Shown here: positions 1 through 52,400 of the stretch, piece after piece
Position numbering within the stretch: position 1 is the first letter of the stretch
Layout of the letters: the number at the start of each line of letters is the position of its first letter
From: Tubulanus polymorphus
Lineage: Eukaryota; Animalia; Nemertea
DNA length: 64,000 nt
Direction of reading: 5' to 3'
Assembly (NCBI RefSeq): GCF_964204645.1
Contig: NC_134031.1
Coordinates: 6,696,001-6,760,000 of the forward strand
Position numbers and translations under genes: made by a program
Notes under the pieces: model-generated
Told to the model about the DNA's origin: nothing
Seen by the model: only the letters and a program-made list of their open reading frames with translations
The model's database searches: none

Positions 1-464
1 ACTGTTTCTTCATTATCTGGTAACGTTTTCCCATATTTTATTTTTTCTAATAAATTATTTTTTCTTTCATTGAATTCAGTTTCAAATTTATTAGAAATTT
101 TATCTATATGTACTTTACGAAATTGATGATTCTCCCAATCTTCTATATTTTCGGGGTTATATTTTATTCGACAAGGCTCACAGAAATGATCTTTTATATT
201 ATCCTTATCATAGAATAAGAAAGGTCTTTTCCAAATAATTTCAGGTTCAACTTCAACAGAATTACTATCAACATTAGCCGTTGCACCATTAATTCTACAC
301 TTCTCTGAATGTTTTTTAACATAATTTCTTGAGAATAATTTATTACATTTTAGACAGTTTAGTTTAGGGGGTTTATAATTTTCTTCATGTTTTTTCATAT
401 GTCGAGCCATATTACTTTTACTTTGAAGTTCACCACAAATTTCGCATGCTATCTTCACTTCCAT
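1..464 (-). CDS. N-terminus of a C2H2 zinc-finger protein, possibly the element's protein-primed DNA polymerase B; runs off the window
   Basis: Manual translation MEVKIACEICGELQSKSNMARHMKKH...CLKCNKLFSRNYVKKHSEKC...FCEPC...HQFRKVH, open to base 1, with a TAAATG start. The pPolB identity is inferred from context only. Confidence 0.55.
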   Translation of the reverse strand, partial: MEVKIACEICGELQSKSNMARHMKKHEENYKPPKLNCLKCNKLFSRNYVKKHSEKCRINGATANVDSNSVEVEPEIIWKRPFLFYDKDNIKDHFCEPCRIKYNPENIEDWENHQFRKVHIDKISNKFETEFNERKNNLLEKIKYGKTLPDNEET

Positions 465-532
465 TTATTAAGGAAAAATTTTATTAAAATTAATTTTTAG
501 TGATGAGCGGTAATTTTTTTATGTTATAAATA

Positions 533-1291
533 ATGGTAGAATTAAAAGAATACAGAATATTTGTTGATTCTAGAAAACTTACAAATTATAAATCTCATAA
601 TTTACTAGTACAATTAGATAGAGAATTTAAGAATTGTGTTGATTTAAAATTAGTAAATGTAAGTTTATGTAATTCTTTTTATAATATATCGGATAAAACT
701 ATTGAACATAGAGCCTTTTTAATTTTTGATAAAAATAAAGATGAATGGTCCTATATATATTTAAAACCGGGGTTATATAATTTAGATACATTAGTACAAG
801 AAATTAATAGAAAAGCCTGGCACAAATTAGGTAGTAGTTCTGGGTTTGGTATTAGATTTTTAAAAAGTGAAAGTTCTGTTAGAATAAAGATAAGGTTGTC
901 TAATAGTGAAAAACATAAATTTATGGTAAAAAAACCTATAGCTAAACTGTTAGGAATTCTTCCAGATAGATCTTTTACAAATATTGATGCTACACCAAAC
1001 TTAATACCTTACACACATTTCTATATTTATTGCAATTTAATCGATCCTACAAAAACATTCGAAGCAACTAAAGATATAACTTGTAATTCTGGTTTATTAA
1101 ACATTTTACCATTGAAGAATGTTAAAGAATTTGGAATGCAAATAAATTATAATTTAACAGAATGTGATTTCAAACCATGCATTCCTCGTTTTAATAATTT
1201 TAGATTAGAAATTAGAAATCATAATGGATACTTAATTGATTTAAATAATTTCCCTGTAATTTATGAATTAGTTATAAGATGTAAAGAGTAA
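533..1291 (+). CDS. Putative minor capsid (penton, single jelly-roll) protein
   Basis: 252 aa, beta-rich. The C-terminal pattern YIYCNLID...LLNILP...FRLEIRNHNGYLIDLNNFPVIYEL resembles Polinton minor capsid proteins. Confidence 0.7.
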   Translation: MVELKEYRIFVDSRKLTNYKSHNLLVQLDREFKNCVDLKLVNVSLCNSFYNISDKTIEHRAFLIFDKNKDEWSYIYLKPGLYNLDTLVQEINRKAWHKLGSSSGFGIRFLKSESSVRIKIRLSNSEKHKFMVKKPIAKLLGILPDRSFTNIDATPNLIPYTHFYIYCNLIDPTKTFEATKDITCNSGLLNILPLKNVKEFGMQINYNLTECDFKPCIPRFNNFRLEIRNHNGYLIDLNNFPVIYELVIRCKE

Positions 1292-1307
1292 TTTTTTCAC
1301 TATATAA

Positions 1308-1649
1308 ATGAATATAACTGTTGGACCGAGTATATGTTTTGGGTTTGATTTTAAACATGGTAAAGAAATGAGAATTAAACTAAATGATGTAATTACTGAT
1401 ATAAAAAGTAAATCATTTAACAATGCATCAATGATTGATAAAGAAAATTATAATATAGAAAAAGTAATTGATTTAATTAAATCACCTTTAGAATATTATG
1501 AATTAAATGAAGATGGAATTATTGATGATATCAAAAACATATTATCCAAAATATATGATAATCATAAAACTAGTAATGAAATAAATGTTGAAATAATCAT
1601 CACTAAGATAACAAAATATTTTGATGATAGTAATTTTTTTGATAAATAA
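1308..1649 (+). CDS. Hypothetical viral protein
   Basis: 113-aa ORF with a TATATAAATG start, abutting the next ORF. Confidence 0.55.
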   Translation: MNITVGPSICFGFDFKHGKEMRIKLNDVITDIKSKSFNNASMIDKENYNIEKVIDLIKSPLEYYELNEDGIIDDIKNILSKIYDNHKTSNEINVEIIITKITKYFDDSNFFDK

Positions 1650-1871
1650 ATGAGTGATAATAAGTGGATAATAACTGGATTATATAATGGCGCATTATTA
1701 TCAGTTGGAACTGTTGGTTATTCAATGGTATTAAAAAAAGTATTTAAAATGGGAAGTGTTAATGTTGATAGATTTGATATAAATGATATTTTAAAGTTAA
1801 CATTAGCAGTTACTTTATCTAATTTAACTATTGATTATTTGGAAAAACAGAAATATATTCCTCCCATATAA
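1650..1871 (+). CDS. Small hydrophobic (membrane-associated) viral protein
   Basis: 73 aa with two hydrophobic segments, C-terminal DYLEKQKYIP and a TAAATG start. Confidence 0.65.
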   Translation: MSDNKWIITGLYNGALLSVGTVGYSMVLKKVFKMGSVNVDRFDINDILKLTLAVTLSNLTIDYLEKQKYIPPI

Positions 1872-1896
1872 ATGCATAATTTTTTTTGCTAAATAA

Positions 1897-2320
1897 ATGG
1901 CTTCTGCAATTATAACTATTATAGGATCGGCAATTGTTAACGCTTTAGCATTTACTGGTGGTGGTTATTTATTTAAACATATTGAAAAAAAATAGTTCAT
2001 TAGGAGAACAAAGAAGACATAACTTAGCGTTAGAGAAATACAATAAAGCTGCAGAAGAATATAGAGAAAAGAGACAAAACTATATGGATTACATCAATAA
2101 AGAATTATATGATCAGAAGATTTCACATAGAGATTTTCAATCAGTTGATGATGCAATGAGTTTATATAACGCAGTAACAAATAAAGAAAAATTACATCTA
2201 TACAAACCTAAATTATCAGATTATTATACCCCAAGTAAAGAACAACAGAAATATGAAATAATATGGATTTTAGGTGGAACTGTTATTGTTATATTTGTTG
2301 CTTATAAGTTTACTAATTAG
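1897..2320 (+). pseudogene. Viral membrane protein, frameshifted in an A-run near 1985-1992
   Basis: True start is TAAATG at 1897 (MASAIITIIGSAIVNALAFTGGGYLF). It continues in the 1958-2320 frame (EQRRHNLALEKY... and a C-terminal TM segment). Confidence 0.7.
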
Positions 2321-2339
2321 TAATTTTTATTCTAAATAA

Positions 2340-2773
2340 ATGGAAGATAAAGTTGATAGTATTGATATTATTCCTCATGATATAAATAAAACTAAATTAA
2401 AAACATATTTAGAAAAACAAATATTAGAATTTGAAAGTGACTTAAAGATAAAAAAAAAAAATATTTAAAAAGTAAAATTATATATTATTTGATTATAAGT
2501 GGTTCGGTTACAATTAGTTCTGTAGTAACATTTCTAGCAATATTCAGCCCATTAACACCTTTAGCTATATCAATTGGTGTATTAGGATTAAGTTCAAGTG
2601 TTTTAACCGGTATAAGTTCAAAATTAAATATAAAAAGTAATAAAGAAAAAATTAAAACTAATATAAAAGAAATTGATAAATTAAAGAACACACTAGATTA
2701 TATAATAAGTTTAAATGGCCATATAACAGTTGAAGAACAAGATAAATTATTAAAAGAATTAGTTAATTATTAA
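2340..2773 (+). pseudogene. Viral hydrophobic-hairpin/coiled-coil protein, frameshifted in an A-run at 2450-2461
   Basis: TAAATG start at 2340 (MEDKVDSIDIIPHD...) joins the 2489-2773 frame, which has a long hydrophobic segment. Confidence 0.6.
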
Positions 2774-2789
2774 TTTTTTAATTATATAA

Positions 2790-4178
2790 ATGGTAGATAG
2801 TTTTCCAAAAGCTTTCCAATATAATAAATCAATTAAATATAATATTCCAGCAATAGATTTTAATAAAGATATTACATATAGAAATGAAGTTTTAGATTCA
2901 TTAACTAATTTAGAAATTTATGTTACTGAAACTAATAATTTTAATGCAAAGATGGAAAATATATTTCATGTATATTTAATTAATTTTAAAAAATTGAAAG
3001 ATGAAAAACAATGGTTATTAAAATCTAATATGAAGTATTGGCAGAATCAATTAAATTTTGCTGTTTATTGTGCAACAACAGGATGTGGAATTAGTTGGAA
3101 TGATCATTTGAATAATTCTAAATATAAACTAATTCAAAGTTTATTTAGATTTCATACATACTTTCAAATCAGAATAATATTAAATGAATTAGAGTGCGCT
3201 TTACCAGGATCTAGGTATTTCAAAGAATTAGATAATAATATTAATTTATCTAAGTTTTATAAAATTTGCAATGAATTTAATATAGATATAAATAATTCTG
3301 ATTTTAGAACAAAAATTGGAACAATAAGATCACTTCCTTGCCCTGAAAAGATTGCAGAATATTGTGCACTTCCCATACCATCTAATAGTTTTTATAATAT
3401 CTATAATAATAAATTAGGTTATGGTAAAATAGAAACAAAGGATTTAGAAACATTAAATTTCAATAAATTACCGAAATTTTATGATAATTTAAAACAAGAA
3501 AACAATAATGGTTGGGTTTATTTTATTTTAGAAAATAGTGAAGGTTTTACTAAATCAGGTATAGAAAGAATAAATCAATCTATTAGAACTTATTTGATTT
3601 GTATTTTAGGTGCGCAAGTTGAAACAAGATCACCGATAATTGGAAATTTGAATACATCATTCGATACACAAAAACAATTTAAAGTATTATTTGAAGATTC
3701 AATTCATAATGATAAAAATAGATCGATTCCAGAAAACATTATAAGATATCAAAATTATTTAGATAAATCTCATGTAAGACTTAATTATTGTATAGGCCCT
3801 AATCTATTAATTATTTCTAATGATTTAGTATTAAAGATGGGAAATATAATTGGTTATAATAATCTAATTAAAACTGCAACAATAAATAATTCATTTGGAT
3901 TAAATGATATAAATAAAAAGATTATCACTGCTCCAAAATTAATGGAAGGTGAAAAAAATAAAAAACATATTCAATCAACTGAAACTAAAACTAAGAATAT
4001 TAAATTGGATAATGATTCCAAAATAAAAGATTACAATACATCAGAAAATAATAGAACTGATATTATTCAACATGATATAATTAAACTAAATGATGATAAT
4101 AAATCCCATGAAAATACTAAATTAGCTATAACTTGTATAGGAATTGTAATCGGAGGAATATTATATTTTAAATTTTAA
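2790..4178 (+). CDS. Polinton-associated protein of unknown function with C-terminal TM anchor
   Basis: 462-aa intact ORF with WQNQLNFAVYCATTGCGISW...FRFHTYFQ, a hydrophobic C-terminus and a TAAATG start. Confidence 0.7.
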   Translation: MVDSFPKAFQYNKSIKYNIPAIDFNKDITYRNEVLDSLTNLEIYVTETNNFNAKMENIFHVYLINFKKLKDEKQWLLKSNMKYWQNQLNFAVYCATTGCGISWNDHLNNSKYKLIQSLFRFHTYFQIRIILNELECALPGSRYFKELDNNINLSKFYKICNEFNIDINNSDFRTKIGTIRSLPCPEKIAEYCALPIPSNSFYNIYNNKLGYGKIETKDLETLNFNKLPKFYDNLKQENNNGWVYFILENSEGFTKSGIERINQSIRTYLICILGAQVETRSPIIGNLNTSFDTQKQFKVLFEDSIHNDKNRSIPENIIRYQNYLDKSHVRLNYCIGPNLLIISNDLVLKMGNIIGYNNLIKTATINNSFGLNDINKKIITAPKLMEGEKNKKHIQSTETKTKNIKLDNDSKIKDYNTSENNRTDIIQHDIIKLNDDNKSHENTKLAITCIGIVIGGILYFKF

Positions 4179-4194
4179 TTTTTTTATGATATAA

Positions 4195-5634
4195 ATGGAT
4201 GTAGAAGGTGGAGAAGATATTGGAATGGATAATTTTGATGAACCTGGTATAACTGATGAACAACCAACTGATTTTGATGAAACAAGTTTCAGTAACGAAA
4301 ATGAAACAGCATATAATTCTAATTTAGCAAGACCTGATACTAATGAATATGTTAATAAAGCACGTTCAAGATTGGACATTGAAAATGAAAATTCAGATTT
4401 AATGAAAAAAGAACTAGAATATGACGAATTAACTGATAAATTCAAACCAATATTAGAAAAATCTGGATTCAATATAACAAATAAAGGTGTGAATTATTTA
4501 GTAAAAGATTTGAAATATTTAAATGGTGATTATTATTGGCATTTGAAAGATGACTATTATTTTAAAATATCTTCTAATAAAAGTCTCGATAAAATAATAA
4601 CAAAACCAACTTTAATTAAATTAGAACAATCTAGAATTAAGAAAATCAACAATGATGTTATAACTGATGTTACAGAACAAGAGATAAATCAAAATAGAAG
4701 AGAATTTAATCGAAGAAATAATGATTTTTTGAAGATAATTAGTGAAAATTTAGAACCAGAAACAATTCCTAAAGAAGATATAACTTCCAAAACTAGTAAA
4801 CTTAAATCAAATAAAGTTCAAACTGAAAAACTTTTACCGAAGGGATTACTTGATGCAACAAAACAAGAATTAGAAGATTTAGATATATTTTCTGGTAAAG
4901 CAATAAGAGAAATTGAAAGTATAAGACATGCATCTGATAAAATTGCGCATGAAAAAGAAATAAGAGATATTAAAATTAGATTTTTAGAAAAAGAATTAAC
5001 TGATAAAAATAAAGAAATAGAACAATTAAAGTCTGATTTAGATCATCAAGTAATTGATGAAATAGAATATAAACAAAAAGAATTACGTTTAGAAAAAGAA
5101 ATAGATGATTTAAAATATAACAAAGAATTACAAAAAGAAGAAAGAGATACATTATTAAAATCATATGATTATAATATTAATAGATTAAAAGTTATTTTTA
5201 AAGATTTGTTGATTAAACCAAATTCTGAAATATCATTAAAAGACAGAATAAGATTATTATTTAAATTAGAAGGAATAACAATTCTTTCAATTCTAACAGC
5301 TGTAACTATGTTATTTACAACAATTGGTTTAGCAATATCAAATGCTTTGAAATCTACTCCCACTCCCAATAAACCAGATAAACCTCCAGGTAATAATTCT
5401 ATACAAGATAAAGTTAAAGATTGTTTAAAGAAATTAGCAAAATATTTATGGGAACTATCTAAAAAATCTGCTGCAGCATTGCCAGGAGTTATTGCTTCAA
5501 TTGTTGGTTTTATATTGAAATCTGCAGGAAACATTATTAACTTTGCTGCTGAACATATTATTTTATTTTTAATTACAGTTGTAAGTGCTATTATTTTTGG
5601 TTTAGTAAATATGATATCAAAAAATATCAAGTAA
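4195..5634 (+). CDS. Acidic N-terminus / coiled-coil / multi-TM viral protein
   Basis: 479 aa: acidic start, heptad-rich middle, hydrophobic helices (GITILSILTAVTMLFTTIG; ALPGVIASIVGFIL; ILFLITVVSAIIFG). Confidence 0.7.
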   Translation: MDVEGGEDIGMDNFDEPGITDEQPTDFDETSFSNENETAYNSNLARPDTNEYVNKARSRLDIENENSDLMKKELEYDELTDKFKPILEKSGFNITNKGVNYLVKDLKYLNGDYYWHLKDDYYFKISSNKSLDKIITKPTLIKLEQSRIKKINNDVITDVTEQEINQNRREFNRRNNDFLKIISENLEPETIPKEDITSKTSKLKSNKVQTEKLLPKGLLDATKQELEDLDIFSGKAIREIESIRHASDKIAHEKEIRDIKIRFLEKELTDKNKEIEQLKSDLDHQVIDEIEYKQKELRLEKEIDDLKYNKELQKEERDTLLKSYDYNINRLKVIFKDLLIKPNSEISLKDRIRLLFKLEGITILSILTAVTMLFTTIGLAISNALKSTPTPNKPDKPPGNNSIQDKVKDCLKKLAKYLWELSKKSAAALPGVIASIVGFILKSAGNIINFAAEHIILFLITVVSAIIFGLVNMISKNIK

Positions 5635-5701
5635 ACATGATATCAAAAAATATCAAGTAAACCATAATCAAAAATAAATAATTAATTTTTTTGTTAAATA
5701 A

Positions 5702-6936
5702 ATGAGTGGGAGTTATATAAGTCCTTCTAAGATTTCAAGAAAATCTAATGCTATTAAAGCAGAAAGATCTCATCATATAATTACTCATAACCCTTCTAAT
5801 ATTAATCCCGATGAAACTTTATATGTTAGAATTCCTAGATTAACACAAAATACTTTTTATGTTCCAAACAGTATTTATTTATCAGCTGATATAAAAGTTA
5901 CTGGCCATGATAACAATTATGTTGTTGATAATGTTGGAAGATATTTGATTAAAAAGTTAACAATAAAGATTGGTCCAGAAACAGTTTTCTCATTAGATGA
6001 TTATAATTTATTTATTTATTATAAAGATTTATGGTTAACTAAAGAAAATAGAAATAATATGATATTTCAGGGTATTCAATCAGAAAACCAAAATAAATTA
6101 AGATCTGAAGCCAATAACGCAGTAGTAAATAATGGTGTAGATAATTTGATTAAAAAGATTTATGGAAGCAAATATAAAATTCCATTAGACTTTGAATTAA
6201 TAAATAATAATGCACCTTTATATAAATACGCAATTCAAGAAGATATTATATTTGAGATAACATTTGCTCCTGTAAATGAAATTGTATTATCTAGCGTTGT
6301 TAAAGATATGGGTTATAAATTATCGAATATATGTTTAGAATATAACACAGTAACTAATGAAAATATTGCTAGCACAATTCAAACAATCAATACAATCAAG
6401 GATTTTCATTATTATATGATTATATTGATAAATTTAAAACTGTAACTATTAATGCAAATGATGAAATAATTAATGAGAATATTAACTTTCCTAGAAGATC
6501 TATTAAAGGTATATTAATATTTTTTACTATTGCAACATATTCTAATGGTGCAATAAATGTTGATAATTATTATAATCCTGAAATAACAAAAGTAGAAATA
6601 ACTATCGAAGGAATAGCGAATGAAATATTTTGTCAAGGAATGAGAATGATTGATCAATGGCCAGAAATTAGAAAACATTTTATGAATGAAAAAGTAAAAT
6701 CATTTGAAAATTGTAACATTAATCAAATTGATTATTATACCGGTAATAAATATGCATTATGGTTAGATTTTAGAACAACAGAAGATAATTCATTACATGG
6801 TTCTGGAAAAAAACTACAAAAAACTAAAGATGGAATACAATTATTCATAACAAAGAATAAAGGAATCAAAAATTTTAAAATGCACATTTATATTATATCT
6901 GACGCGCAATTAAATATTGTAAATTCACAATTAGAA
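5702..6936 (+). pseudogene. Major capsid protein (double jelly-roll); frameshift near 6381; last codons displaced to 10624-10638 by the LINE
   Basis: ERSHHIITHNPS..ETLYVRIP, then a shifted frame NQYNQGFSLLYDY..NINFPRRSIKGIL..YALWLDFRT..DAQLNIVNSQL. The remaining SIQY* (AGTATTCAATATTAG) lies immediately after the LINE tail. Confidence 0.8.
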
Positions 6937-6937
6937 T

Positions 6938-9900
6938 TTACTAAATCATGATGGCAAAGATTCACCTCTCAGTTTTTTTCATGCGAATGTACGAAGTGCA
7001 AATAAAAATTTTGATTCATTTTCCGATTATCTCCAAACTTTGAACTATAATTTTTCAATTGTCGGTTTGTCAGAAACATGGACTGATGACAATTGTCAAA
7101 ATGATTCATTGTATCATTTGCCGAATTATTCGAGTTTATTCCGCAGTAGAAACGATAAAGGAGGTGGCGGAGTTGCGCTTTTGATTAAAAATTCTATAAA
7201 TTTTAAGATCAGAGATGATCTCTCCTTAGCTGAATCTTTGTTTATAGAAGTCCCTCTTAAACCGAAAAGCATTATCGTCGGAGTTATTTATCGTGCTCCT
7301 GATAGTGATATAGCTAATTTCATCAAAGAATTTCAGTCATTTACTGAACGCGTAAATAAAGAGAAATTAGATGTTTTAATTTTGGGGGATTATAACATTG
7401 ATTTCGGAAATTACGGTGCGAGTGGTCAGTGTGACGCTTTTATGGATGAGGCTATTTCCAATTCATTTATGCCATTAATTAACCCTTTCGCTGCGTACAC
7501 GCTTGCACCGCCCCCTACGTAAGGTATTTTCCGAAAAATTCGATTTTTTTCAAGTTGTTTTTAACCCCGATTTTTCGCGTTTTTATCGAAGATTATGATG
7601 TTATTTAGTGAAAATCAGTAAAAAATCATACCAACAGCCTTTTCTGTAGGGGGGGGCGTGTTGGGGGGGGGGGGGGGTCAGGATGGGTTAAAAATTTTTT
7701 TTTTTCAGTTTTTCACCCAAGTGCCTATCTCAGTCTTTGGTGATTGATGCTACGGTGTGGATGAAAGAAATTCAATTGATATGGGATATCCTTTTCCGCT
7801 GGTAGAGGTACGTAAGTGGTGAGCCATCTCAATCCCGCGCAAATTACCATGTGCTCAACAGGCTGACAGCACCAACTACTGACGCATTTTCGCCATCTGT
7901 TGTTTAGAAAGCTAACTATCTTGTCTTACATGCGTTTCCATACTGTTTGCTGTGTACGCGTTCGAGTTATAAATCAATAGGTGCATGACGTTTCTACAAC
8001 GTCATACGCACAGCAAGTGTCACTCATATGACGTTTCCAAAACGTCACACGTAGCGAAAGGGTTAATATCCCTACTCGTGTCACTGACCACTCGTCAACC
8101 GTAATTGACAATATTTTGGTAAACTTTTTTGATAATTACAGTTTTACTAGCGGTGTATTTTTGGCGGACATAACTGACCATTATCCTATTTATACTTTTG
8201 TTCACGGTTTGTACGAGTCTCATGATACTAAACTACCGCGGATTAAAATCCGAAATATTAATCCTCGGACCACGGAACGCTTCACGCGCTGTTTATTATC
8301 ATGCGACTGGCAAAATGTGTATAATAGCAATGACCCAGAAGTCTCATGTAAGGAGTTCTATAACATTGTTGATTATTATTTTGAAATCTGTTTCCCTTTT
8401 AAGTATGTAACTCCTGGCGTGGAGAAAAATGATAAACCGTGGTTAACCTGTGGTATTCGACGTTCTATCAAACAGAAAGAAAAACTGTATAAAAAATATT
8501 TACGTAAAAAAACCCAGGAATGTAAGGATAAATATTGTACTTATCGAAGCTCAATTCGATTTTAAAGAAATGTAAGCAAATGTATTATAAGAATGTATTC
8601 GCCTCCTGCAAATCAGATCCTAAAGAAACATGGAAACAGGTTAATAACTTACTCAATAAACAGAAACGCGATAAACCCCATTCTCAATTTGTATATAAAG
8701 ACAAAGTAATCTCAACAGATTATGATATAGCCAGTGGTTTTAACGACTATTTTGTTAATATTGCCGGCTCCTTAGAATCAAAAATACCGCCTTCCGATAA
8801 ACATTTTAAAGATTTTCTAGAGGAACGAAATCATATAAACTTTTTTCTGTCACCGACGACACCCAATGAAATTGAATTAATTGTGCATGGCTTTAAAAAT
8901 AAACTATCCAGTGGTTGTGATCAAATCAGCACTAAACTATTGAAATCAATAATTCAAGTTATTTCACAACCCCTTTGTCATATTTTTAATAATAGCTTTC
9001 TTACGGGTATTGTTCCTAGCATATTTAAGATCGCTCACGTAACACCTATTTTTAAAAGTGGCGATAAATCGCAGTTCAATAACTATCGACCTATTTCTGT
9101 CCTTCCCGCTATATCTAAGATAATAGAGAAACTCGTTTATAATAGACTCCAGGCATTCCTTGAAAATTTCAATATTCTATCAGATCGTCAATTTGGTTTC
9201 AGGAAAAATAGATCCACTGCCTCAGCCTTAGCATTTATTACGGATAAGATAACTGATTATCTTGAAAATGGCAAAGTCACGATTGGTGTCTTCGTTGATT
9301 TGTCAAAGGCTTTTGACACAATCAATCATAATATTTTAATTTCAAAATTGGAAAATTATGGAATTCGTGGGCCCCCTCTACAATGGTTTCGAAATTACCT
9401 AGAAGACCGTAAACAATGTGTTAAATATAATAACTCCTTATCTCCAACTAGAAATATAACTTTCGGAGTTCCTCAAGGCTCAATCCTAGGTCCTTTGCTT
9501 TTTCTTGTATATATCAATGATTGCCCCTCTTCTTGTAAACTCCTAGAGTCAATTTTTTTCGCTGATGATAGTAATTTTTTCATCAGCGATAAGGACCCCA
9601 AGAAACTAGAGCAAGTTTTAAATTCTCAGCTGGAGAAACTACTTCAGTGGTTTCGAGCAAATAGGCTCTCTGTGAACGCTATTAAAACTCATTTTATTGT
9701 CTTTGGTTATAAGTGTCTAGGTCAAATTAATCTTTTTTTCGATGGACAAAGAGTTTCGCGTGTAGATAGTACTAAATTCTTAGGTGTAATTTTTGACCAG
9801 AGACTGACATGGCGGGACCATATTCAATACATCTCTCGAAAGGTTTCCCGGGGAATTGGAATCATCAATAGGCTTAAACATGTTCTTCCTTTTGGTGTTC

Positions 9901-10376
9901 TTAAAAATTCATATTATTGTTTTGTCAATCCACATCTTGCATATGCAACTTTAATCTGGGGTAATTCATGTAATATTTACTTGGAACCCTTATTTCGTCT
10001 CCAAAAGAAAGCAATTCGGATAATAACACATTCTTTTTGGCTAGCACATACAACTCCAATTTTCAAGAAATTAGAAATCTTAAAGCTACACGACATATAT
10101 CAATTTCAGCTGTGCAATTTTGTCTTTAGTCAAATTAATCAAAACTTACCATCAATTTTCAATGAATTTTACTGTTTTCTAAAATCCATGACAGGGCGAC
10201 CTTCTCGTCGCCCACTAAATTTAAAAGTGGAATATGCGAAATCTAACTTTAGAATGAAATCATTAAAAATCCAAGGTGCAAGATCCTGGAACTCCCTTCC
10301 CAGAAAACTCAAATCTTCGAAATCACGCCCTTTCTTTAAAAAATGCTTAACCAATTATTTGGTCGCAAAATACTAA
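6938..10376 (+). pseudogene. LINE ORF2 (APE endonuclease + reverse transcriptase), split by a MITE and one frameshift near 8545
   Basis: HANVRS, GLSETW, GGGVAL, LGDYNID, PTRVT..IDNI, TDHYPI, NYRPISVL, QFGFR, DLSKAFD, GVPQGSILGP, FADD. Confidence 0.92.
7483..8062. mobile_element. Non-autonomous piggyBac-type MITE
   Basis: TIRs CCCTTTCGCTGCGT / ACGTAGCGAAAGGG (13/14 match). TTAA at 7479-7482 and 8063-8066. Excision restores the EN frame FMPLINIPTRVTDHSS. Confidence 0.92.
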
Positions 10377-10668
10377 TGCCCGCAACGTGGCCGCCATTTA
10401 ATTGTTTATATATGTAAAGGGTGATTCTTGTAACGAATGTGCGTGTATGTGTAAGTGATGAGTGCATGTGAGTGTGATTGTTGACCGAGGGGTAAGGACT
10501 CGTATAAGTCAAATTTTGACTTCTCCTTACTCCTCGCACTATATATTGTTACTCTGAATATAATGTATATTGTGTCGATATTTTTTGTAACAATTTATTT
10601 TGCAAATAAATTCAAATTCAAATAGTATTCAATATTAGAAATATAAAGTTAAAATTAAGGATATATAA

Positions 10669-11796
10669 ATGGGTGGTAAAAAAACTCCTAATACTAAACA
10701 ACAATATTTAAGAAATTTATATTACAACCCTGAGAGTTCGGTTGCTTATTCTTCTACTAAAAATATATGGCGTAAAGTAAAACAAGATAAATTAGATAAG
10801 ATAATCCCACAAAATTTAGTTAAATATAAAGATATAAATGAATTTATGTTAGAACAACCAACGTATACAACACATAAAAAAATTGTTAGAAAATATAAAA
10901 CTCGTAAAACTATGGTAAGTTATGTAGATCAACAGTGGCAAGGAGATTTAATTGATATGAAAAATCTTAAAAAAGATAATAATGAATATTGGTGGATATT
11001 GAATATAATTGATATTTTTAGTCGTTATGTATGGAGCTTCCCACTTTATAGAAAAGATGCTGCACAAAAGTCACATTTTTTAAGAAAATTTCTTTCAGGT
11101 GGTAAACTAAAACCAGAAAAAATTCAATTTGATGATGGAAAAGAATTTGATAATTCATTAGTTCATGGTCTCTTAGATTTTCATAATATTAAATATTCTT
11201 CAACAAAATCGGATAAAAAAGCAGCAGTTGTTGAACGATTTAATAGAACATTAAGAACAAGAATGTGGAAATATTTTACAGCAAATAATACTTTTAAATG
11301 GATTGATGTTTTACCAAAATTTATAGAAGGATATAATAATTCTTATCATTCTTCTATTGGAATGAAACCTATTGATGCTAGAAAACCTGAAAATGCTTGA
11401 ATTGTTTGGAATAATTTATATGGAGCATTTCTTGTAGATGATTTTGGTGAACCTAAATTTAAAGTTGGTCAAAATGTTAGAATTTCTAAGTATAAAAAGA
11501 TATTTGATAAAGGATACGATCGAAATTTTACTAGAGAAATATATAAAATAAAAAAGGTAATAACAACAAAACCATATGACTATAAATTAGAAGATTTAGA
11601 TGGTGAAGAAATTGATGGCTACTTTTACGAAGAAGAATTAAGTTTAACTACTGAAAATCTAGAACAAGAATATAAAATTGAAAAAGTACTAAAAACAAAA
11701 ACTGTTAAAAGAAAAAAATATTCTTTAGTAAAATGGGTTGGATGGCCAGATAAATTCAATGAATGGATATTATCAAGTAAAATTAAAAATATATAA
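10669..11796 (+). pseudogene. Polinton rve integrase with C-terminal chromodomain; one in-frame TGA at 11398-11400
   Basis: WQGDLID, IDIFSRY, QFDDGKEF and VERFNRTL (DDE triad). The frame continues past the stop: PKFKVGQNVRIS...YKIEKVLK...SLVKWVGWPDKFNEWI. Confidence 0.9.
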
Positions 11797-12406
11797 ATGA
11801 ATAAGGAATTATTTATATTTGAGCCTCATAATATGTTAATTTCTGGTGTAACAAATTGTGGAAAAACTTATTTTATATTAAATTTATTAGAAACTGGTTA
11901 TGAAAACTATTTTGATAATATAGTATTATTTTGTCCAACATATGAATTTAATCAAACTTATAATAGAAATATTACTAGAAATAATAAATTTATTTATATT
12001 AGATCCTAAAACAGTAAAAGAAAATTTAGATAATTGTATAAAAATAGCAATTGATATTTATAAAGGATCAAATACATTATTCATTATAGATGATTGTGCT
12101 AATCTACATGATTCAAAAGTTAGAGAAAGTGAGTTATGTTATTTAGCTTTTTCTGGCAGACATTTTGGGATAACAACTTGGGTTTTAAATCAAAAATATA
12201 ATTCAATTGTTAAAGACTTTAGAGAAAACATTAGATTTCTAGTTTTATTCTACAATAAAGATAGAAAATCGATGAAAAATGCACTTGAGGAAAATGATAT
12301 TATTCCACATGATTTACATAATGAATATATGGATAAGTTGAAAAATATTAAAAGATCAAAATTACTATTTAGATTACAACACCCATTTAAATATGAATTT
12401 ATTTAA
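11797..12406 (+). pseudogene. A32/FtsK-like DNA packaging ATPase, frameshift near 12000
   Basis: Walker A SGVTNCGKT in the first frame. Walker B LFIIDD, GRH motif and Q..IVKDFREN in the second frame. Confidence 0.88.
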
Positions 12407-12410
12407 ATTC

Positions 12411-12660
12411 AATTAGTTTGTTAATCTAGTTGAATTCTAGTTATTGGTAGTTGTAACAAAAATCAAATAGATTTAACAATATTTTAACTAGCTTGTTAAT
12501 CTAGTTTAATTCTAGTTACATTCTAGTTGAATTCTAGTTGTTAGTAGTTGAAACAAAAATCAACTAGAATGTAACTAGAAATAAACAAAAACAACAATAT
12601 TTCAACTAGCTTGTTAATCTAGTTGAATTCTAGTTACATTCTAGTTAAATTCTAGTTGCA
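12411..12660. repeat. CTAG-rich palindromic repeat cluster
   Basis: Recurrent CTAGTTGAATTCTAGTT / CTAGTTACATTCTAG units, duplicated block AACTAGCTTGTTAATCTAGTT, hairpin TAGTTG..CAACTA. Confidence 0.8.
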
Positions 12661-12689
12661 ACATCACAACTAATTTTTTTGTTATATAA

Positions 12690-13295
12690 ATGGTAGGTGA
12701 AAAGAAAAGAAAATCTAAAAATGGTGATGTTCCAATTGAAAAAACTTTAGATGATTTAGGAATAACAGAAACAAAATTAACTCCAGATTATGGTGCTTTA
12801 AATAATGTTACAACAAATAATAATTATGAATATTATCTTTATTGCAAACATCAATTAGAAATATTAATAGCATCTGGAAAATGTAAAAATTTTGTCGGTA
12901 AAAATTTAACTTATAATGAATTAGATACAATGAAATCAGATGAAATTATTAGATTATTTAAGATTTATGAAGCCGCGAGAACAGCTAGAATTAATGACGC
13001 GATATCAGAAAATGTAGTAAAAGGTTATAGTAAATTATGTAATTATATACTACCAATTGAAAATGAAAATAGATTATATTCCGATTTAAAAAATGATTAT
13101 TTAGTTATGACTGAATTAAATAAATGGATTGGATATTTATCATTTCAATTAGGTGGATTTATGACATTATTATCTACTGGGGTTATAACATTTTCAAATA
13201 TTGAAAGTAAAAATATTTCTATAATAAATGAGCGAGGTGAAAGAAGTGAAGGAATTAACTGTGAAGAAAAAACCGAGAACTCAGAAACAAATTGA
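12690..13295 (+). CDS. Hypothetical viral protein with late hydrophobic segment
   Basis: 201-aa ORF with a TATATAAATG start. Confidence 0.6.
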   Translation: MVGEKKRKSKNGDVPIEKTLDDLGITETKLTPDYGALNNVTTNNNYEYYLYCKHQLEILIASGKCKNFVGKNLTYNELDTMKSDEIIRLFKIYEAARTARINDAISENVVKGYSKLCNYILPIENENRLYSDLKNDYLVMTELNKWIGYLSFQLGGFMTLLSTGVITFSNIESKNISIINERGERSEGINCEEKTENSETN

Positions 13296-13596
13296 ATGGT
13301 CTCGACAATTAGGAATTAAATCACAAGAATATAAAAAAGCTGTAAAAGAAAAAATAAGTAATAAAAATGTTAATAAAAATGGTGAAAATATTGTTATTTC
13401 TACTCCTTCTGATAGTAGAATATTTGATAAATATTTATATTTTACAGTTGGATTTGTAATTGTATTCATTTTGATTGGGTGTAATTGGTATAAGAAATCA
13501 AATAAAATTCATGATATTAGTAATTCTAAACCAACTGCTATCAAAAATGAAAGTACTTCTGAAATTTCAAAATTGATAATAAAAAAAATGGATTAA
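13228..13596 (+). CDS. Basic single-TM viral protein
   Basis: 122 aa with KKKPRTQKQIEW, a TM segment YLYFTVGFVIVFILIG and a TAAATG start. Confidence 0.6.
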   Translation: MSEVKEVKELTVKKKPRTQKQIEWSRQLGIKSQEYKKAVKEKISNKNVNKNGENIVISTPSDSRIFDKYLYFTVGFVIVFILIGCNWYKKSNKIHDISNSKPTAIKNESTSEISKLIIKKMD

Positions 13597-13680
13597 TATT
13601 TTAGAAAAAAAGCAAAAAAAATAATTGAATATCTCACTACTTTTGTCTATCTATGTGGAGCAATTAAATTGTCCAGATAA

Positions 13681-14595
13681 GTCATTTCGGATTCTAGATA
13701 TTCATTATTTTTATTAATTTATTTTGTTTTTATTTGAATATTTGAATTTGAATTTGTTAATCAATTAACATAGTAATTGATTACTAATTTGATTAAAAAT
13801 TATATCATAATTAAGTTAAAAATACATAATTCATTTATCAGTTTTCATTCTTACATTCTTTTCATTCGGAATAATTTATAATTTCAAATTTCACATATTT
13901 TTTTTAGCACCAGCTACATTTACTTAGGTGTTTTAGCTAAGTATATAAGGCAATTCATTCAACCACTGGAGTGCCGCCGGGCTTGGCTTGCAGGGGCATT
14001 TCGAAAATGCACCTTTGTCCACCCTCCGTGGTTCTCCTTCAGTTTCGACTTTCTATCCTCCTTTCGGGGGTAAGTGGTTGATAGGAAATGCATTAGGCGC
14101 CTTTAATATAATGTGTTTCCTGTCAACCATTGAAGGAGAATTGGTGAGGTGTGGGTCACAGGGGTGTAATTAGAAATGCTTGGGGATAGGTATCTCGTGG
14201 CGCCTCTCAATAACGGGATGCTTATCCCCTAAAAACTCTGTGAGTCAAGTCGGGTGGTTTTGCTAAAACTTACCGTAAAAACATTGAAATATTCCTTTTA
14301 ATCACGAGAGAATGATGACTATCCTCCTGTCGTCACGGCTGAGCTAATTTAAATAAACCTCGCTTTCAGCAACTAATGAAAACGCAGTAATTCAATACCA
14401 GCTAACTGGCTTGTGTGTGTTGTATGTACTGCGTGCTTATTATATAACAACAACGTTGTGCAACACCTGTTTGATTGATCAATATTCAAATGAAGCACTA
14501 TCTTATAATAACATGTAACAGATGTACTGTATGATTGTAGTTGTTTATAAAACGACTAAGGTCATTTTGGATTCTAGATATTCATTATTTTTATT
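13681..14595. repeat. 35-bp direct repeat pair (13681-13715 and 14561-14595)
   Basis: GTCATTT(C/T)GGATTCTAGATATTCATTATTTTTATT occurs twice, 880 bp apart, with one mismatch. Confidence 0.9.
13973..14261 (+). ncRNA. Candidate structured non-coding RNA encoded by the Polinton
   Basis: GC-rich island that folds by hand into eight helices with about 20 G-U pairs. Upstream TATATAA (13942-13948) and terminal TTTT (14258-14261). Confidence 0.65.
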
Positions 14596-14601
14596 TTTTA
14601 T

Positions 14602-14928
14602 TCAATCAACAATTTCTAAATCATGATGACCGTCTTCATTTTTCCCATGATATATTATTTTAAATCCTACTAAATCTTTCAATTCCTCCGTACTCAATGA
14701 AACCCATTTATCGGGTAAAAACACTTTAAATTCTCGCGATGTACTTACATTACAGTAGCTTAAATTAGCTGATACTTTCTCTCCATATTTAGTTTTTATC
14801 TTTTCTAATTTCAATATTTTATGTTCAATTTCTTTTGTAACATCAACTAACTTTTTTATTTCAAATTGTTTTTTTGCTGGTTTTATTCTGTTATTTATTG
14901 TTGATAAGAATGCTTTTCTATCTCCCAT
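14602..14928 (-). CDS. Small viral protein, possible OB-fold ssDNA-binding protein
   Basis: 108 aa, KTKYGEKV...FKVFLPD pattern, TATAAATG start. The fold is an inference. Confidence 0.5.
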   Translation of the reverse strand: MGDRKAFLSTINNRIKPAKKQFEIKKLVDVTKEIEHKILKLEKIKTKYGEKVSANLSYCNVSTSREFKVFLPDKWVSLSTEELKDLVGFKIIYHGKNEDGHHDLEIVD

Positions 14929-15189
14929 TTATAAGGAAAAAAAATATTTGTGGCGACGAGTGGTGTCTCGCCCTCTCGCCCTCTGATCTGAAACCCACAT
15001 ATTACAATTACTCATATTAATTCGGTTTTTTGATTGTCAAGGCTACCCTTCGTAGACATTTATCGCATGGAATTAAGTTGATTTCTGATACTCGAAAATG
15101 AGTAAGGTATCGTTTATATATAAGATTTAGTTAATTACATTTAGCAACACGTTTATATCATTACACCATCGGCAAAGTGAATAGATTTT

Positions 15190-15262
15190 AATTATTTGGA
15201 GATAATTCATACTATTGATGTACAGGGGCTGAGAATGGAGCCTTGGGGAACTCCACAAATAA
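15190..15262 (-). pseudogene. Decayed LINE reverse-transcriptase fragment
   Basis: Minus strand encodes CGVPQGSILSP..YIN. Confidence 0.55.
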
Positions 15263-16513: not shown

Positions 16514-17159
16514 TGGTGGCTGATTCGGCCTTGTAAAAACACCTCAAATGGTGCAAATTTTTTTTACAGACGCCTTTAAGTCGTTTTAACGAAAATTACC
16601 ACGTTAAAACGAGAAATTACCGCGATAATACGGGATTTTTTCGTTTTATCTCGCGATAAAACGAGAAAAAGTCGCTTTATCGCGAGAAAAAAACTAAATT
16701 TTTTCCTTGTATTGCCACGTTAAAACGAAAAATAGCGCGATAAAAAGAAAAATTACCACGTTAAAACGAGAAAAACTTTTCCGTATTATTGTGACGTTAA
16801 AACGAAAAAAAGCGCGATAAAACGAGAAAATTATCGCAATGAAATGATTTTTTTTATTCGTTTTATTCATCATGATAAAACGAAAGAACAAATCCATTTT
16901 CTTCATTTTCCGTTTTAACGTGGCAATAAAACGAAAAAGTTCGTTTCATCGCCCAATAAAAGAGTTTTTGTTTTATCGTGGGATAAAACGACTTTTTCTC
17001 GTTTTAACGCGGTAATTTTCGTTTTATCGCGCTATTTTTCGTTTTAACGTGGCAATAAAACGAAAGTTCGTTTCATCGCGCGATAAAACGACTTTAAGCG
17101 TCTGTCAAAGAAAATTTGTAAGTCTGTCATTTTTGATTAAATGGCCGAATCAGCCACCA
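16514..17159. mobile_element. TA-flanked foldback MITE (TIR TGGTGGCTGATTCGG)
   Basis: TA-TGGTGGCTGATTCGGCC...GGCCGAATCAGCCACCA-TA with internal AAAACG/CGCGATA repeats. Confidence 0.85.
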
Positions 17160-42267: not shown

Positions 42268-42625
42268 GTATCATGGACTCTAAAACGTTTTAGAGTCCAT
42301 GATACAGGGCTTGATTGCCGCCCGCCGAGCTCACGCCAACGTAAACCCTGGCCACCAACCCTTCATTGGTCTACTACACCATCCAAGATTTCTTGAGCGG
42401 ACAGGTTGCCACTCAGCGGCCACTAGTATATACGTCGTCTAGCCAATCAGATGCTTTGCACTGATAGTGCGAATCTGCCGGTGAAGAACAACGCATCTGA
42501 TTCGTTTAATACATAGACTGGTGCCCGCTGACCGACAACCTGTCCACCCAAGAAATCTTGGGTGGTGTAATAGACCATGGACTGTCTATGAATGGACCAA
42601 TGAAGGGTTTGCGGCCAGGGTTTAT
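42268..42625. repeat. Perfect 38-bp palindrome followed by a foldback element
   Basis: GTATCATGGACTCTAAAACGTTTTAGAGTCCATGATAC, then long inverted arms AACCCTGGCC..CCAAGATTTCTTG / CAAGAAATCTTGG..GGCCAGGGTT. Confidence 0.7.
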
Positions 42626-42959
42626 GTTGGTGTTCTCAAGTTATGAGTGTATCGTTAACAAATGTGTTTATTCTCGGTGTTCATCTTTTTGGCGTCTACA
42701 CAAAAATACCATAGAAATTGCCCAATAATGGTTTTTACTCAACATGAAGATGTTTTTACGCCACGACAACCAAGCCTAATAACAAAATTGATAGATATAG
42801 GCCGGACGCCCGTGACACCCGACAGTTTATTAGCCAATTAGCCAAAAGTTGCAAAATATGGTTTTTATTCGACATGAAGATGTTTTTACGAGCAAGTCGA
42901 GTGTATCATATATCATTATTTGGCAAATTTGTTGGTATGATACAATAATTAGTACAATC

Positions 42960-49416: not shown

Positions 49417-52400
49417 ATGAATGAAATGGAAAGTATCAAGACGGAAGACGCCTCAAACCTGCAGAATTTTGATGGCTCTAAGAAACGTTCATTGTCGCCA
49501 ACAATGGAAGCTGATGATGAGGTAAAACATAAAAAAGCCTAGATAATGACAACTTTCTTCTCTGACTCTGCTCATACTTATACCGTCCTCCAACAACGCA
49601 CTGGGCAGGGGCTTTTTTATGTGTGATGGGGAGCAAAATCAAAGGTTTTACTCGGTAGGCCTTCTCTCAGCAGAGGCTTAAACGTGGTATTGCCATATAA
49701 TTATCCATGTTTTTTAGTCGCCAACAAAATGTCAGAAATTGTCCGATGAAACCGGCAAACCAAAAAAGAGAAGAAGTTTTATAGCTGGCCGACGATCAAC
49801 AATTAACTTTCCTCTTCCCGGTAATGGTTTTAACACATACCGATATCCTTCAAAGTAATTCTTCTAGAAGTTTATGGGATTTTTGGTCGTGATATATTCA
49901 CTGTTTTTCAGATTTAGAAGACATTCATTCTCAGAGCGAGGAAAGCGAATCGGAGAAACCGAAGAGGTAATTTAACTGTCAATCCCCCCTGTACCTGTAA
50001 CTCAAACCCAGCTTGCCTCAGATCCTCGCCGACCAATTCAATTTCTCTAGACGCAAGTGAATCCCCGAGCTATCGGAGGGATGAGGGTTTGTCATCATAT
50101 ATGAATTAGAGTTCAACAATTCAAAAAGTTTTCGCTGAATTATGCATTAATCTTAGGCAATCGGCTCCATGGTGAGCGGAGGCTATTGTGTCCACTTTGT
50201 AAAACAGCCATCAACTTTAATTGGTATTCACTGACAAAAAAATGGCAATTTCGTCCGTCTGTCTTCATCCATATGGGCCTTTTCGTCTTCTTGTTCTGAG
50301 ACTTGGACATTTCTTTTTCGTCTCATAACTAGTCAAAATGAACCCCCGATATACTGTCTATATCACGAAGATCCTAAATGTGAGCAGATTATCAGCAGTT
50401 GACTGTATTAATTTTTTTCCTAACTTTTCTTTTTGATTTGATATCTTTTTCAGAGTTCTTCTTCCAAATCCAATAAACGAACAGACCAAGGAAGCGGCTA
50501 AATGCACTGAGGCTGATATTCAAAGGTGCTTATTAGTTACTCCATCATTCAGTCCTTATCGTGTATCTGGCTATGAAAATGTTCACCTTGTTCCGTCTGT
50601 AGGTTTCAAAACGAATGCGATGAGTGGAAGAGAGTTTTGGACGGATTTATTCAGAAAGTTGAAGAATTAGAAAAGTAAGGAAACTAACAGGGCGATACAG
50701 GCGCAGACTCCGCACAGTGCAGTAGCGTTGGAACTGTAGGGCAGGGGCTGCAGTTGCTTAAAAATTTACCAGTGGATAGTTGACATAGTGAAGATTTTAA
50801 GTTCATTGTTACTATTGTATTTATCCGCTGGTTTAGGTTATCTTTAACCAACTTGAGCGACCGGTCCCAGGTTTCGAGTGAACACAGGTTAAAAAGTAGC
50901 AAAATGTAGTGAATTACAGTAGAATCTGCTTAATTTGGATTATTCACCATCCCTGTGAAGCTGGCTCCCGGTTCCCGGTTCCTTATTCGGCTCCCGATTC
51001 AAAATGCTGTTGAACCGGGAGCCGAATCGGGAACCGGGAACCGGGAGCCGGCTACTGGTTCAGCTCCCGATTCAAAATGCTTTTGACCCGGGAGCCGAAT
51101 CGGGAACCGGGAGCCGGCTACTGGTTCAGCTCCCGATTCAAAATGCTTTTGAACCGGGAGCCGAATCGGGAACCGGGAACCGGGAGCCGGCTACTGGTTC
51201 AGCTCCCGATTCAAAATGTGAAGCTGGCTACTTATTCGCCAGGTGGCGCTGGTGTACACTGTGCTGTAGTCCAGACATTTTACGTAACTATGTCTACTCT
51301 GCTGATAAACAAACTCGACCTCGACCTTGACAAGAAATCGCCAGGTGTGGCGCGAGCCAATCCAGACGTCTAAACACGATTGCGTATGCGACCGCGAGAC
51401 TCGCGGTCGCTATACGTCAGTAAGCTGCGTCTATTAATAACATAACTTGGTTTAAGAACGTGTGTATTGCTCGGTCGTTTTTCTCGTCACCGAATTGACT
51501 TCTTCATATGTTATTCGCCTCTAATCATTTAATCAATAAACCATCGATTGTTCCCGAGCTATAGGGTATTGATTAGTCAGCACTGAAAGGGTTAACAAGA
51601 GAGAAAGTTTCTAACGAAAGTTATCGAATCCCCAAGACAACAATATCTGCAAGCCCATGAAATTGTAAGATATAAAATAAACAGACGCTTCTGCCTACCG
51701 TATAAATCACCCTTCATGCAGGGTAAATCCATTGTCGAAGATGAAAAAACTATCACTTCAATATTCTATTAAACTTAATATTTTCCTATCTATCAAATTC
51801 CATAGAAAACATAAAAGAACATTTTTCTCATCCCTAAACCGAAAATAGCTTGAAATGAGAGCGCACACAAAATTCTAATCCAATAGTTACCACGGCTGCA
51901 TGGTAAAACAGTGAGACCACTAACATTGGCGCAGAGATAAGATGGTTGTTTAGACGTCTCAATTGCAAAATGTGAAGCTGGCTACTTATTCGATTCGACT
52001 CTATTGCGGACAGCAGGTAAACATAATTACGTAACTATGTCTGCTGAAATGAGTGCAACCTTGACCTCGGCCACCAGGCTAATCGAGACCTGAATTAACA
52101 CCACGCGTGTGACGATTTCCTCCCGATTCAAAATCATTTTGAATCGGGAACCGGGAACCGGCTACTGGTTCCCGGTTCCCGGTTCAAAACCATTTTGAAT
52201 CGGGAGCCGAACCGGGAACCGGGAACCGGGAGCCGGCTACTGGTTCAGCTACCGATTCAAAAACATTTTGAATCGGGAGCCGAATCGGGAACCGGGAACC
52301 GGGAGCCAGCTTCACAGGGGTTTATTCACCTGGGTTAAGGATCATTCATTTATTTCGTACGCGTAAGATTTGAATTTTTCAACCCCCCCTACACAAAATC

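Follow-up and report, generated by a model that had tools for sequence, protein, structure and literature searches.

A structure-conserved element lies on the + strand of a multi-copy Polinton-like provirus in the window, that is, in the whole 64,000-nucleotide stretch of DNA that was analyzed. On our best reading, this element would specify a structured Pol III RNA carried by the virus, similar in its way of working to the VA and EBER RNAs yet distinct from both.

Positions 1 to approximately 14945 were identified as an AT-rich decayed Polinton-like provirus that runs off the left edge of the window. The Polinton context had been claimed in an earlier note, and it was borne out by an integrase with a chromodomain and an A32 ATPase; a weak match to a capsid-like gene is a further lead. 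All three genes are broken in the window copy. Relatives of the integrase with both rve and chromo domains reached 61-65% identity. The capsid-like gene gave feature hits of 0.96-0.97 to Preplasmiviricota, DJR-like and Sputnik MCP clusters, which are a lead because the recognition value is below the threshold. No homologue of its fragments was obtained among 1411 candidates, and its single-sequence structure model (pLDDT 28) was useless. No pPolB was detected among the 16 ORFs of 1-15000 scanned, and no terminal repeat was seen in the part of the element inside the window, which it exceeds at the left edge. The RNA is located between convergent viral-type ORFs (13228-13596 on the + strand and 14602-14928 on the - strand). 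The coordinates of all features are given in the table.

Features of the predicted RNA unit and of the provirus carrying it, in window positions
Feature	Position	Strand	Basis or remark
Predicted structured RNA, ~289 nt	13973..14261	+	5' end placed by TATA spacing, P1 and the match limit of the diverged subfamily; 3' end by TTTT
Conserved upstream block, -67 to -32	13906..13941	+	At the PSE position of U6-type promoters; putative PSE
TATATAA at -31 from G13973	13942..13948	+	Sequence
P1, 5' strand	13973..13995	+	Pairs with 14236-14258
Long arm P2-P5, 5' strands	13996..14043	+	39 bp in the MFE structure; 3' strands 14129-14179
B-box-like word	14042..14050	+	Partly single-stranded; fails a strict B-box pattern
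Hairpin P7 with L7 (14096-14108)	14076..14128	+	Double changes at 14081/14123 and 14088/14116
Hairpin P8 with L8 (14199-14212)	14182..14229	+	Four single changes, all pairing-preserving
TTTT, predicted Pol III terminator	14258..14261	+	First four-T run after 13960
Conserved downstream block	14262..14304	.	No substitution among the differences listed; depth ~600, ~300 after 14322
Possible minor capsid-like gene (DUF5901)	533..1291	+	E 0.0016, below cut-off, weak
Double jelly-roll major capsid-like gene, in pieces	5702..6951	+	Capsid_N E 0.009 (weak)
LINE-type retrotransposon inserted in the provirus, ends approximate	6952..10625	+	RVT_1 E 5e-38
Polinton-type integrase (rve) with chromodomain	10669..11793	+	rve E 5e-9, Chromo E 1.6e-5; stop at 11398-11400
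A32-like packaging ATPase, two frames	11797..12406	+	Two Pox_A32 matches, one per piece (E 6e-5, 3e-6)
Two viral-type ORFs upstream of the RNA	12690..13596	+	First: 216 relatives at E<=0.001, no Pfam family
Viral-type ORF converging on the RNA	14602..14928	-	AT-rich element ends near 14945 at a host repeat

Several other features were observed in the window. The LINE sits just after the capsid-like gene, and its endonuclease region is seemingly interrupted by a GC-richer insertion of ~600 bp (7480-8075). Short direct and inverted repeats with 11-nt units occupy 12400-12670, between the ATPase and the ORF starting at 12690. The product of this ORF (12690-13295) has a hydrophobic C-terminal stretch and is a marker for this Polinton clade; it had no usable match in a protein atlas. 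The host sequence contains, on the - strand, a tandem array of ~6-7 paralogous multi-exon genes with a signal-peptide-like first exon (18000-47600) and a single-ORF rhodopsin-family GPCR (58292-59353), all seven matches of which were in Tubulanus polymorphus (best 65%), which makes a nemertean (ribbon-worm) host likely. Strongly folding, largely strand-symmetric inverted repeats at 50950-52320, 42330-42630 and 16600-17070 are probably MITEs or foldback elements.

The helices P1 to P8, the loops, TATATAA and TTTT reported in the earlier note were all found where it had placed them, and the GC-rich island that it described in AT-rich surroundings was evident from a GC content of 49% in the RNA region, compared with 19% at 13600-13900 and 26% at 14560-14940. 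Folding of both strands against shuffled sequences, which the note had proposed, gave -154.8 kcal/mol for the + strand of 13965-14265 (z -12.87), and none of 100 shuffles folded as well. The value for the - strand was -88.8 kcal/mol (z -4.95). Among 638 sliding 290-nt windows, the two that overlap the RNA ranked first and third in strand asymmetry; the strongest-folding repeats of the same scan (near 51-52 kb) fold similarly on the + and - strands. The MFE structure of 13973-14258 consists of 107 pairs (45 GC, 40 AU and 22 GU, where about 20 G-U pairs had been claimed), with 75% of the bases paired. The mean pair probability was 0.94-1.0 in all helices except P6, which is marginal (0.56). In P1, 22 of the 23 positions are paired (11 GC, 4 AU, 7 GU and 1 mismatch), and P2 (7/7), P3 (11/11), P5 (15/15), P7 (20/20) and P8 (17/17) are fully paired.

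GGCGCC occurs in L7 (at 14096) and in L8 (at 14199), unpaired with a probability of 0.91-1.0, and each loop thereby has the unpaired, self-complementary word that is one feature of kissing-loop RNAs of the DIS or pRNA kind. Each word sits on its own hairpin and is followed by a U/A-rich 3' part of 7-8 nt. These two are the only GGCGCC words below position 15000, out of 11 in the window, and two or more were found in 0.04% of 5000 shuffles. As free strands, the loop-loop duplex was calculated at -14.1 kcal/mol. P7 and P8 are alike and may have arisen by an old duplication; if so, this would explain the palindromic loops, and dimers would also be permitted. No second copy of the RNA was found in the 64-kb window, nor a second structured RNA downstream, where 14290-14560 folds weakly (z -2.1 and -0.8).

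Three other accounts of this region were rejected. A DNA palindrome or MITE was ruled out by the strand asymmetry of 64 kcal/mol and by changes that generate G-U pairs, and a coding role by stops in all six frames of 13940-14300. The GGCGCC words do not have the flanks of the E2F motif, and E2F sites were thereby ruled out.

Copies of the element were collected from contig runs of one study (X1-X3 were used) and from raw DNA reads of the same species from another study (X5), and were mapped on 13750-14500. Between 36% and 57% of the sampled words were present in four contig runs, all of one study; no RNA run was listed among them, which carries no information on expression. The mapped depth over the RNA was 488-784 from 1934 Mb read. 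With an assumed genome size between 300 and 900 Mb, this corresponds to ~80-360 copies and thus to a copy number in the order of 100. The absence of the RNA from other copies, which the earlier note had named as a ground for rejection, was thus not observed; the RNA is present in many. Approximately two thirds of the reads were nearly identical to the window copy, and an X1 contig spanning 13948-14311 differs from it by 4 letters. The other third represents a diverged subfamily, which is ~83% identical (~17% diverged) over 14078-14229 and too different to align over 13973-14077. On the other hand, this subfamily matches the window at 13906-13972 and from 14258 to ~14304. Its matches stop inside the RNA at 13972, 14078, 14139 and 14241, and 147 X5 reads stop matching exactly behind 13972, the base before P1. 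Judged from these alignments, the diverged subfamily appears to have kept the sequence outside the RNA and the structure inside it. At 14311-14412, other copies often have 10-20 bases in place of the window sequence.

The differences between subfamilies were then compared with the predicted fold. The comparison draws on 40 of 93 differences, which were assigned to contigs by depth value; 23 of these fall within 14078-14229, where the diverged X3 contig has 26, and the up to 3 others could break pairs or hit loops. Both partners were visible for 35 pairs in P7 and P8. Eight of these are touched by the 10 listed substitutions, and all eight still pair. Two of the eight are double changes, A-U to G-C at 14081/14123 and A-U to U-A at 14088/14116, with matching contig depths in X2 and X3. 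The rest are three changes from G-U to Watson-Crick pairs and three from Watson-Crick to G-U pairs, and the three new G-U pairs are mismatches on the - strand. Ten randomly placed substitutions break ~5 pairs on average; the probability of zero broken pairs was 0.0007-0.001 at 75-80% transitions and 0.01 under transitions only. Two or more double changes taken alone had a p of 0.03-0.08. In P1, about half of the reads have G-C at 13990/14241, where the window copy has G-U.

Among the listed changes in pairs whose other partner was unseen or which lie outside 14078-14229, six keep the pairing and five break it. The 5' partners of the pair-breaking positions 14140, 14146 and 14179 are out of view and may have changed too, and the near-fixed differences at 14054 and 14075 break helix-end MFE pairs that are peculiar to the window copy and lie outside the helices described earlier. 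Among the 27 bases of the two loops, a single change was listed (p 0.03-0.05), and among the 12 of the GGCGCC hexamers there was none (p 0.10-0.13); an invariant pair is uninformative about kissing. These comparisons suggest that selection on the + strand fold, which the earlier note had deduced from the G-U pairs, is well supported for P7 and P8 only, with the covariation coming from essentially two subfamilies of one species and thus from a handful of events. Of the two signs of selection that the note had proposed to look for, the pair-preserving changes were found in P7/P8, whereas loop conservation was marginal and appears suggestive.

When +1 was placed at G13973, TATATAA, which had been noted about 30 nt upstream, starts at -31, and the edge of the conserved block lies at -67. 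No differences were present at 13916-13972 among those listed. In mammalian U6 and 7SK promoters, TATA extends from -31/-32 to -24/-25 and the PSE from -66/-67 to -46/-47, according to passages of PMC3958870. Because the two elements upstream of the RNA match these positions, its promoter would be an external type 3 promoter. The A-box pattern had no match in the RNA. The B-box-like word at 14042 pointed out in the earlier note is present, but it fails the strict B-box pattern, to which nothing else in the RNA conforms. Its core is seemingly kept, by eye, in the non-matching reads of the diverged subfamily, and a mixed promoter is therefore possible. TTTT follows the closing stem as described before; none occurs inside the RNA, which is weak evidence since the same holds for 16% of shuffles. 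Overall, the layout looks Pol III-like, with a promoter that is more of the external U6 type than of the VA type with A and B boxes.

Nevertheless, TATATAA may not be a Pol III TATA, because the viral ORFs carry a TATA-like motif of their own, TAAATG. This motif ends 13 of the 14 viral ORF starts inspected in 1-14945, and a T-run lies 5-7 bases upstream in 10 of them. It resembles a poxvirus late promoter, and such starts may indicate transcription by the machinery of a helper virus. The one occurrence of TAAATG in the Polinton literature that was checked was a primer. As for the downstream block (14262-14304), it resembles a PSE that lacks a TATA, its - strand has an 8-base word in common with the upstream block, and it could belong to a second small gene. 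No lophotrochozoan PSE sequence was found in the literature. A direct repeat of ~45 nt (13675-13720 and 14555-14600) brackets the RNA; read on the - strand, it begins with a poly(A)-signal-like word.

The edges of the conserved region bear on an alternative in which the RNA began as a Pol III gene of the host or as a small mobile RNA of the non-autonomous kind, a SINE- or retrozyme-like cassette spanning 13906-14311. A single lineage of Polintons would have captured it, or received it by insertion, and multiplied it along with itself, and the structure would then serve the cassette and not the virus. The edges are fairly sharp. The depth steps at 13906, climbing from 535 to 615-721 across 13906-13957, and again after 14311. 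The diverged third of the reads ends matching upstream of ~13906, and X3 record 21 (1425 nt) and one X1 contig run on upstream in unlike sequence. The diverged copies may belong to another lineage of Polintons whose spacers have diverged, or they may lie outside Polintons. The GC content of the RNA, far above that of the viral flanks, and the bracketing direct repeat would also suit a cassette. However, the window-like subfamily has a depth of 488-548 in the 5' half of the RNA, and the same depth is seen immediately before the conserved region (483-535 at 13828-13905), which indicates that in the window-like copies the viral-type flank continues over 100-150 bases or more. The copy number of ~80-360 is low for a SINE, and the 64-kb window holds no second copy. 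Furthermore, neither a poly(A) tail, a tRNA nor an Rfam match was found, and the hammerhead core word is absent. We consider a captured cassette unlikely. A SINE in the strict sense found no support, since a head derived from tRNA, 7SL or 5S, a simple-repeat tail and a high dispersed copy number were all lacking, with copies on the order of 100; the unlike upstream sequence of some diverged copies leaves a dispersed element a small probability. A retrozyme or self-cleaving ribozyme likewise found no support, given the Rfam result and the lack of CUGANGA on either strand of 13850-14450.

The explanation that we tentatively favor, at somewhat less than even odds, is that the element encodes a Pol III RNA of ~289 nt with a predicted L7-L8 lock, and that this RNA is a likely decoy for host double-stranded-RNA sensors. 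Host Pol III would probably start near G13973 from an external U6-type promoter, perhaps helped by the B-box-like word, and stop at TTTT, and the product would be an abundant, almost fully paired RNA. L7 and L8 are predicted to pair through six G-C pairs, for which we see an even chance. If P7 (22 bp) bent back where P5, P6 and P7 meet and ran along the 39-bp arm, the tip of P7 would lie ~17 bp from the junction, which is the length of P8, and the two loops would meet. By this arithmetic, made without a three-dimensional model, an intramolecular kiss is geometrically possible; since GGCGCC is palindromic, the same loops could also join molecules as dimers. The compact, wobble-rich RNA might then occupy proteins of the PKR, Dicer or ADAR type and fail to trigger them, in the way that VA RNAI acts on PKR, a step that we hold to be plausible at slightly under even odds. 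In passages of PMC7589676, VA RNAI is described as a wobble-rich Pol III RNA in which a pseudoknot turns an activator into a PKR inhibitor. PKR and ADAR are present in molluscs, which are fellow lophotrochozoans, according to part of PMC7460283.

Polintons replicate by strand displacement, and a structure between convergent viral ORFs could act in cis, either in a longer viral mRNA that includes the 3' region of the ORF at 13228-13596 or in the displaced single-stranded DNA. In agreement with this, the + strand is the better-folding one as DNA too (-60.7 versus -41.2 kcal/mol). On the other hand, an independent unit fits TATA at -31, the block from -67, the onset of divergence where the closing stem begins and TTTT where it ends, and the toggling between G-U and Watson-Crick pairs suits RNA. 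A cis-acting structure is quite improbable, less likely than a captured cassette.

RNA relatives outside the species were sought by blastn against phages, by patterns in viral and metagenome contigs, in genome contigs and through protein-based related loci. None was found in these collections, which cover few animal genomes, and the lack of relatives is thus weak evidence of rarity. Blastn against phages gave no match, and the twin-loop pattern gave none in viral contigs. Its four matches in metagenome contigs were spurious, three being one tandem repeat of a ~23-mer and one a tandem duplication in a prokaryotic contig. Searches with the single sequence of ORF 12690 or of the integrase, or with an alignment of ORF 12690, led to no related loci, and genome contigs yielded none. 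An integrase alignment led to three distant viral loci (39-40% identity), in which no comparable fold, loop pair or sequence match was seen; their best 250-nt windows fold at -65 to -87 kcal/mol.

These searches also count against a virion-assembly or packaging RNA that multimerizes hand in hand through its two palindromic loops, like the phi29 pRNA on its motor, because an essential part should be widespread. With one palindromic loop present twice per molecule, chains or rings could form; an A32 packaging ATPase is among the genes of the element, and the loops are nearly unchanged between the subfamilies among the differences listed. The phi29 pRNA likewise has two loops per molecule that are able to link molecules; however, its loops are complementary and non-palindromic, and it is made by a bacterial RNA polymerase. 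No RNA requirement is known for A32/FtsK-type motors. Such a role is very unlikely. A broader reading, in which a Polinton Pol III RNA forms dimers or rings by twin kissing loops and has a function in the virus itself, either as a scaffold that sequesters sensors or as a partner of the capsid or of A32 in packaging, is given a small chance only.

A Pol III primary transcript that is cut to small RNAs is as unlikely as a packaging RNA. Foamy viruses make Pol III double-hairpin (dumbbell) pri-miRNAs (PMC7693620), and in the element, P7 (20-22 bp) and P8 (17 bp) are both long and have loops of 13-14 nt. In contrast to those pri-miRNAs, it has long closing stems, and the subfamilies differ in the stems more than in the loops, opposite to what miRNAs show; the changes at 14081-14090 and 14189-14192 hit the would-be mature arms, and a pre-miRNA hairpin would be expected to be longer than P8.

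Integrated DNA viruses of the Polinton type are widespread in animals and have been read almost only through their proteins. If the candidate is an RNA gene that is under selection, specific to one strand and driven by a promoter of host type, these elements would invest in interaction with the host at the RNA level, and it would be an invertebrate counterpart of the VA and EBER RNAs with a different architecture. A dimer- or ring-forming viral RNA, if true, would be the first Polinton non-coding RNA gene and would imply that VA-like strategies arose in the lineage that was the source of adenoviruses. The earlier note knew of no such RNA in Polintons; our searches of the openly accessible literature likewise returned no description of a Polinton non-coding RNA gene, and the main text of a coral polintovirus paper (PMC11131425) contains no occurrence of non-coding, noncoding, promoter or tRNA. 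The GC-rich intergenic islands of other Polintons are suggested to be worth scanning.

The Rfam search proposed in the earlier note gave no match to a known RNA family: none at E<=10 over the RNA, with four weak matches elsewhere in 13000-15200, and none at the gathering score in the whole window. A tRNA search found none. The HIV-1 DIS shares the six-base palindromic GC loop; it is, however, a single loop with flanking purines in genomic RNA, whereas the Polinton RNA has two on separate hairpins. Genes of the U6/7SK type (type 3) are alike in TATA at -31, the upstream block to -67 and the T-run end (passages of PMC3958870), whereas the Polinton RNA matches no U6, 7SK, RNase P/MRP, SRP or Y model.

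Adenoviruses belong to the same broad virus lineage as Polintons, and upstream promoter elements are in use in EBERs as well. The viral Pol III RNAs named in parts of PMC11194592 are VA RNAs, EBERs and BocaSR, and the predicted RNA resembles EBV EBER1/2 and bocavirus BocaSR in being a structured viral Pol III RNA. It differs from them in having no sequence match, being about twice as long and far more paired (75%), and residing in an integrated virus of an invertebrate. The central GGGU-ACCC stem described for VA RNA in passages of PMC7589676 was not found; the one ACCC, at 14021, precedes each of the four GGGU words, and the MFE structure pairs it with none of them. VA RNAI and VA RNAII, as presented in the same passages, resemble the predicted RNA as Pol III viral RNAs whose ends close a terminal stem, with a U4 end, many wobble pairs and a possible loop-loop contact. 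In contrast to VA RNAs, the Polinton RNA matches no VA model in Rfam and has a length of ~289 nt rather than ~160, an imperfect B-box without an A-box, an external TATA and upstream block instead, and twin palindromic loops.
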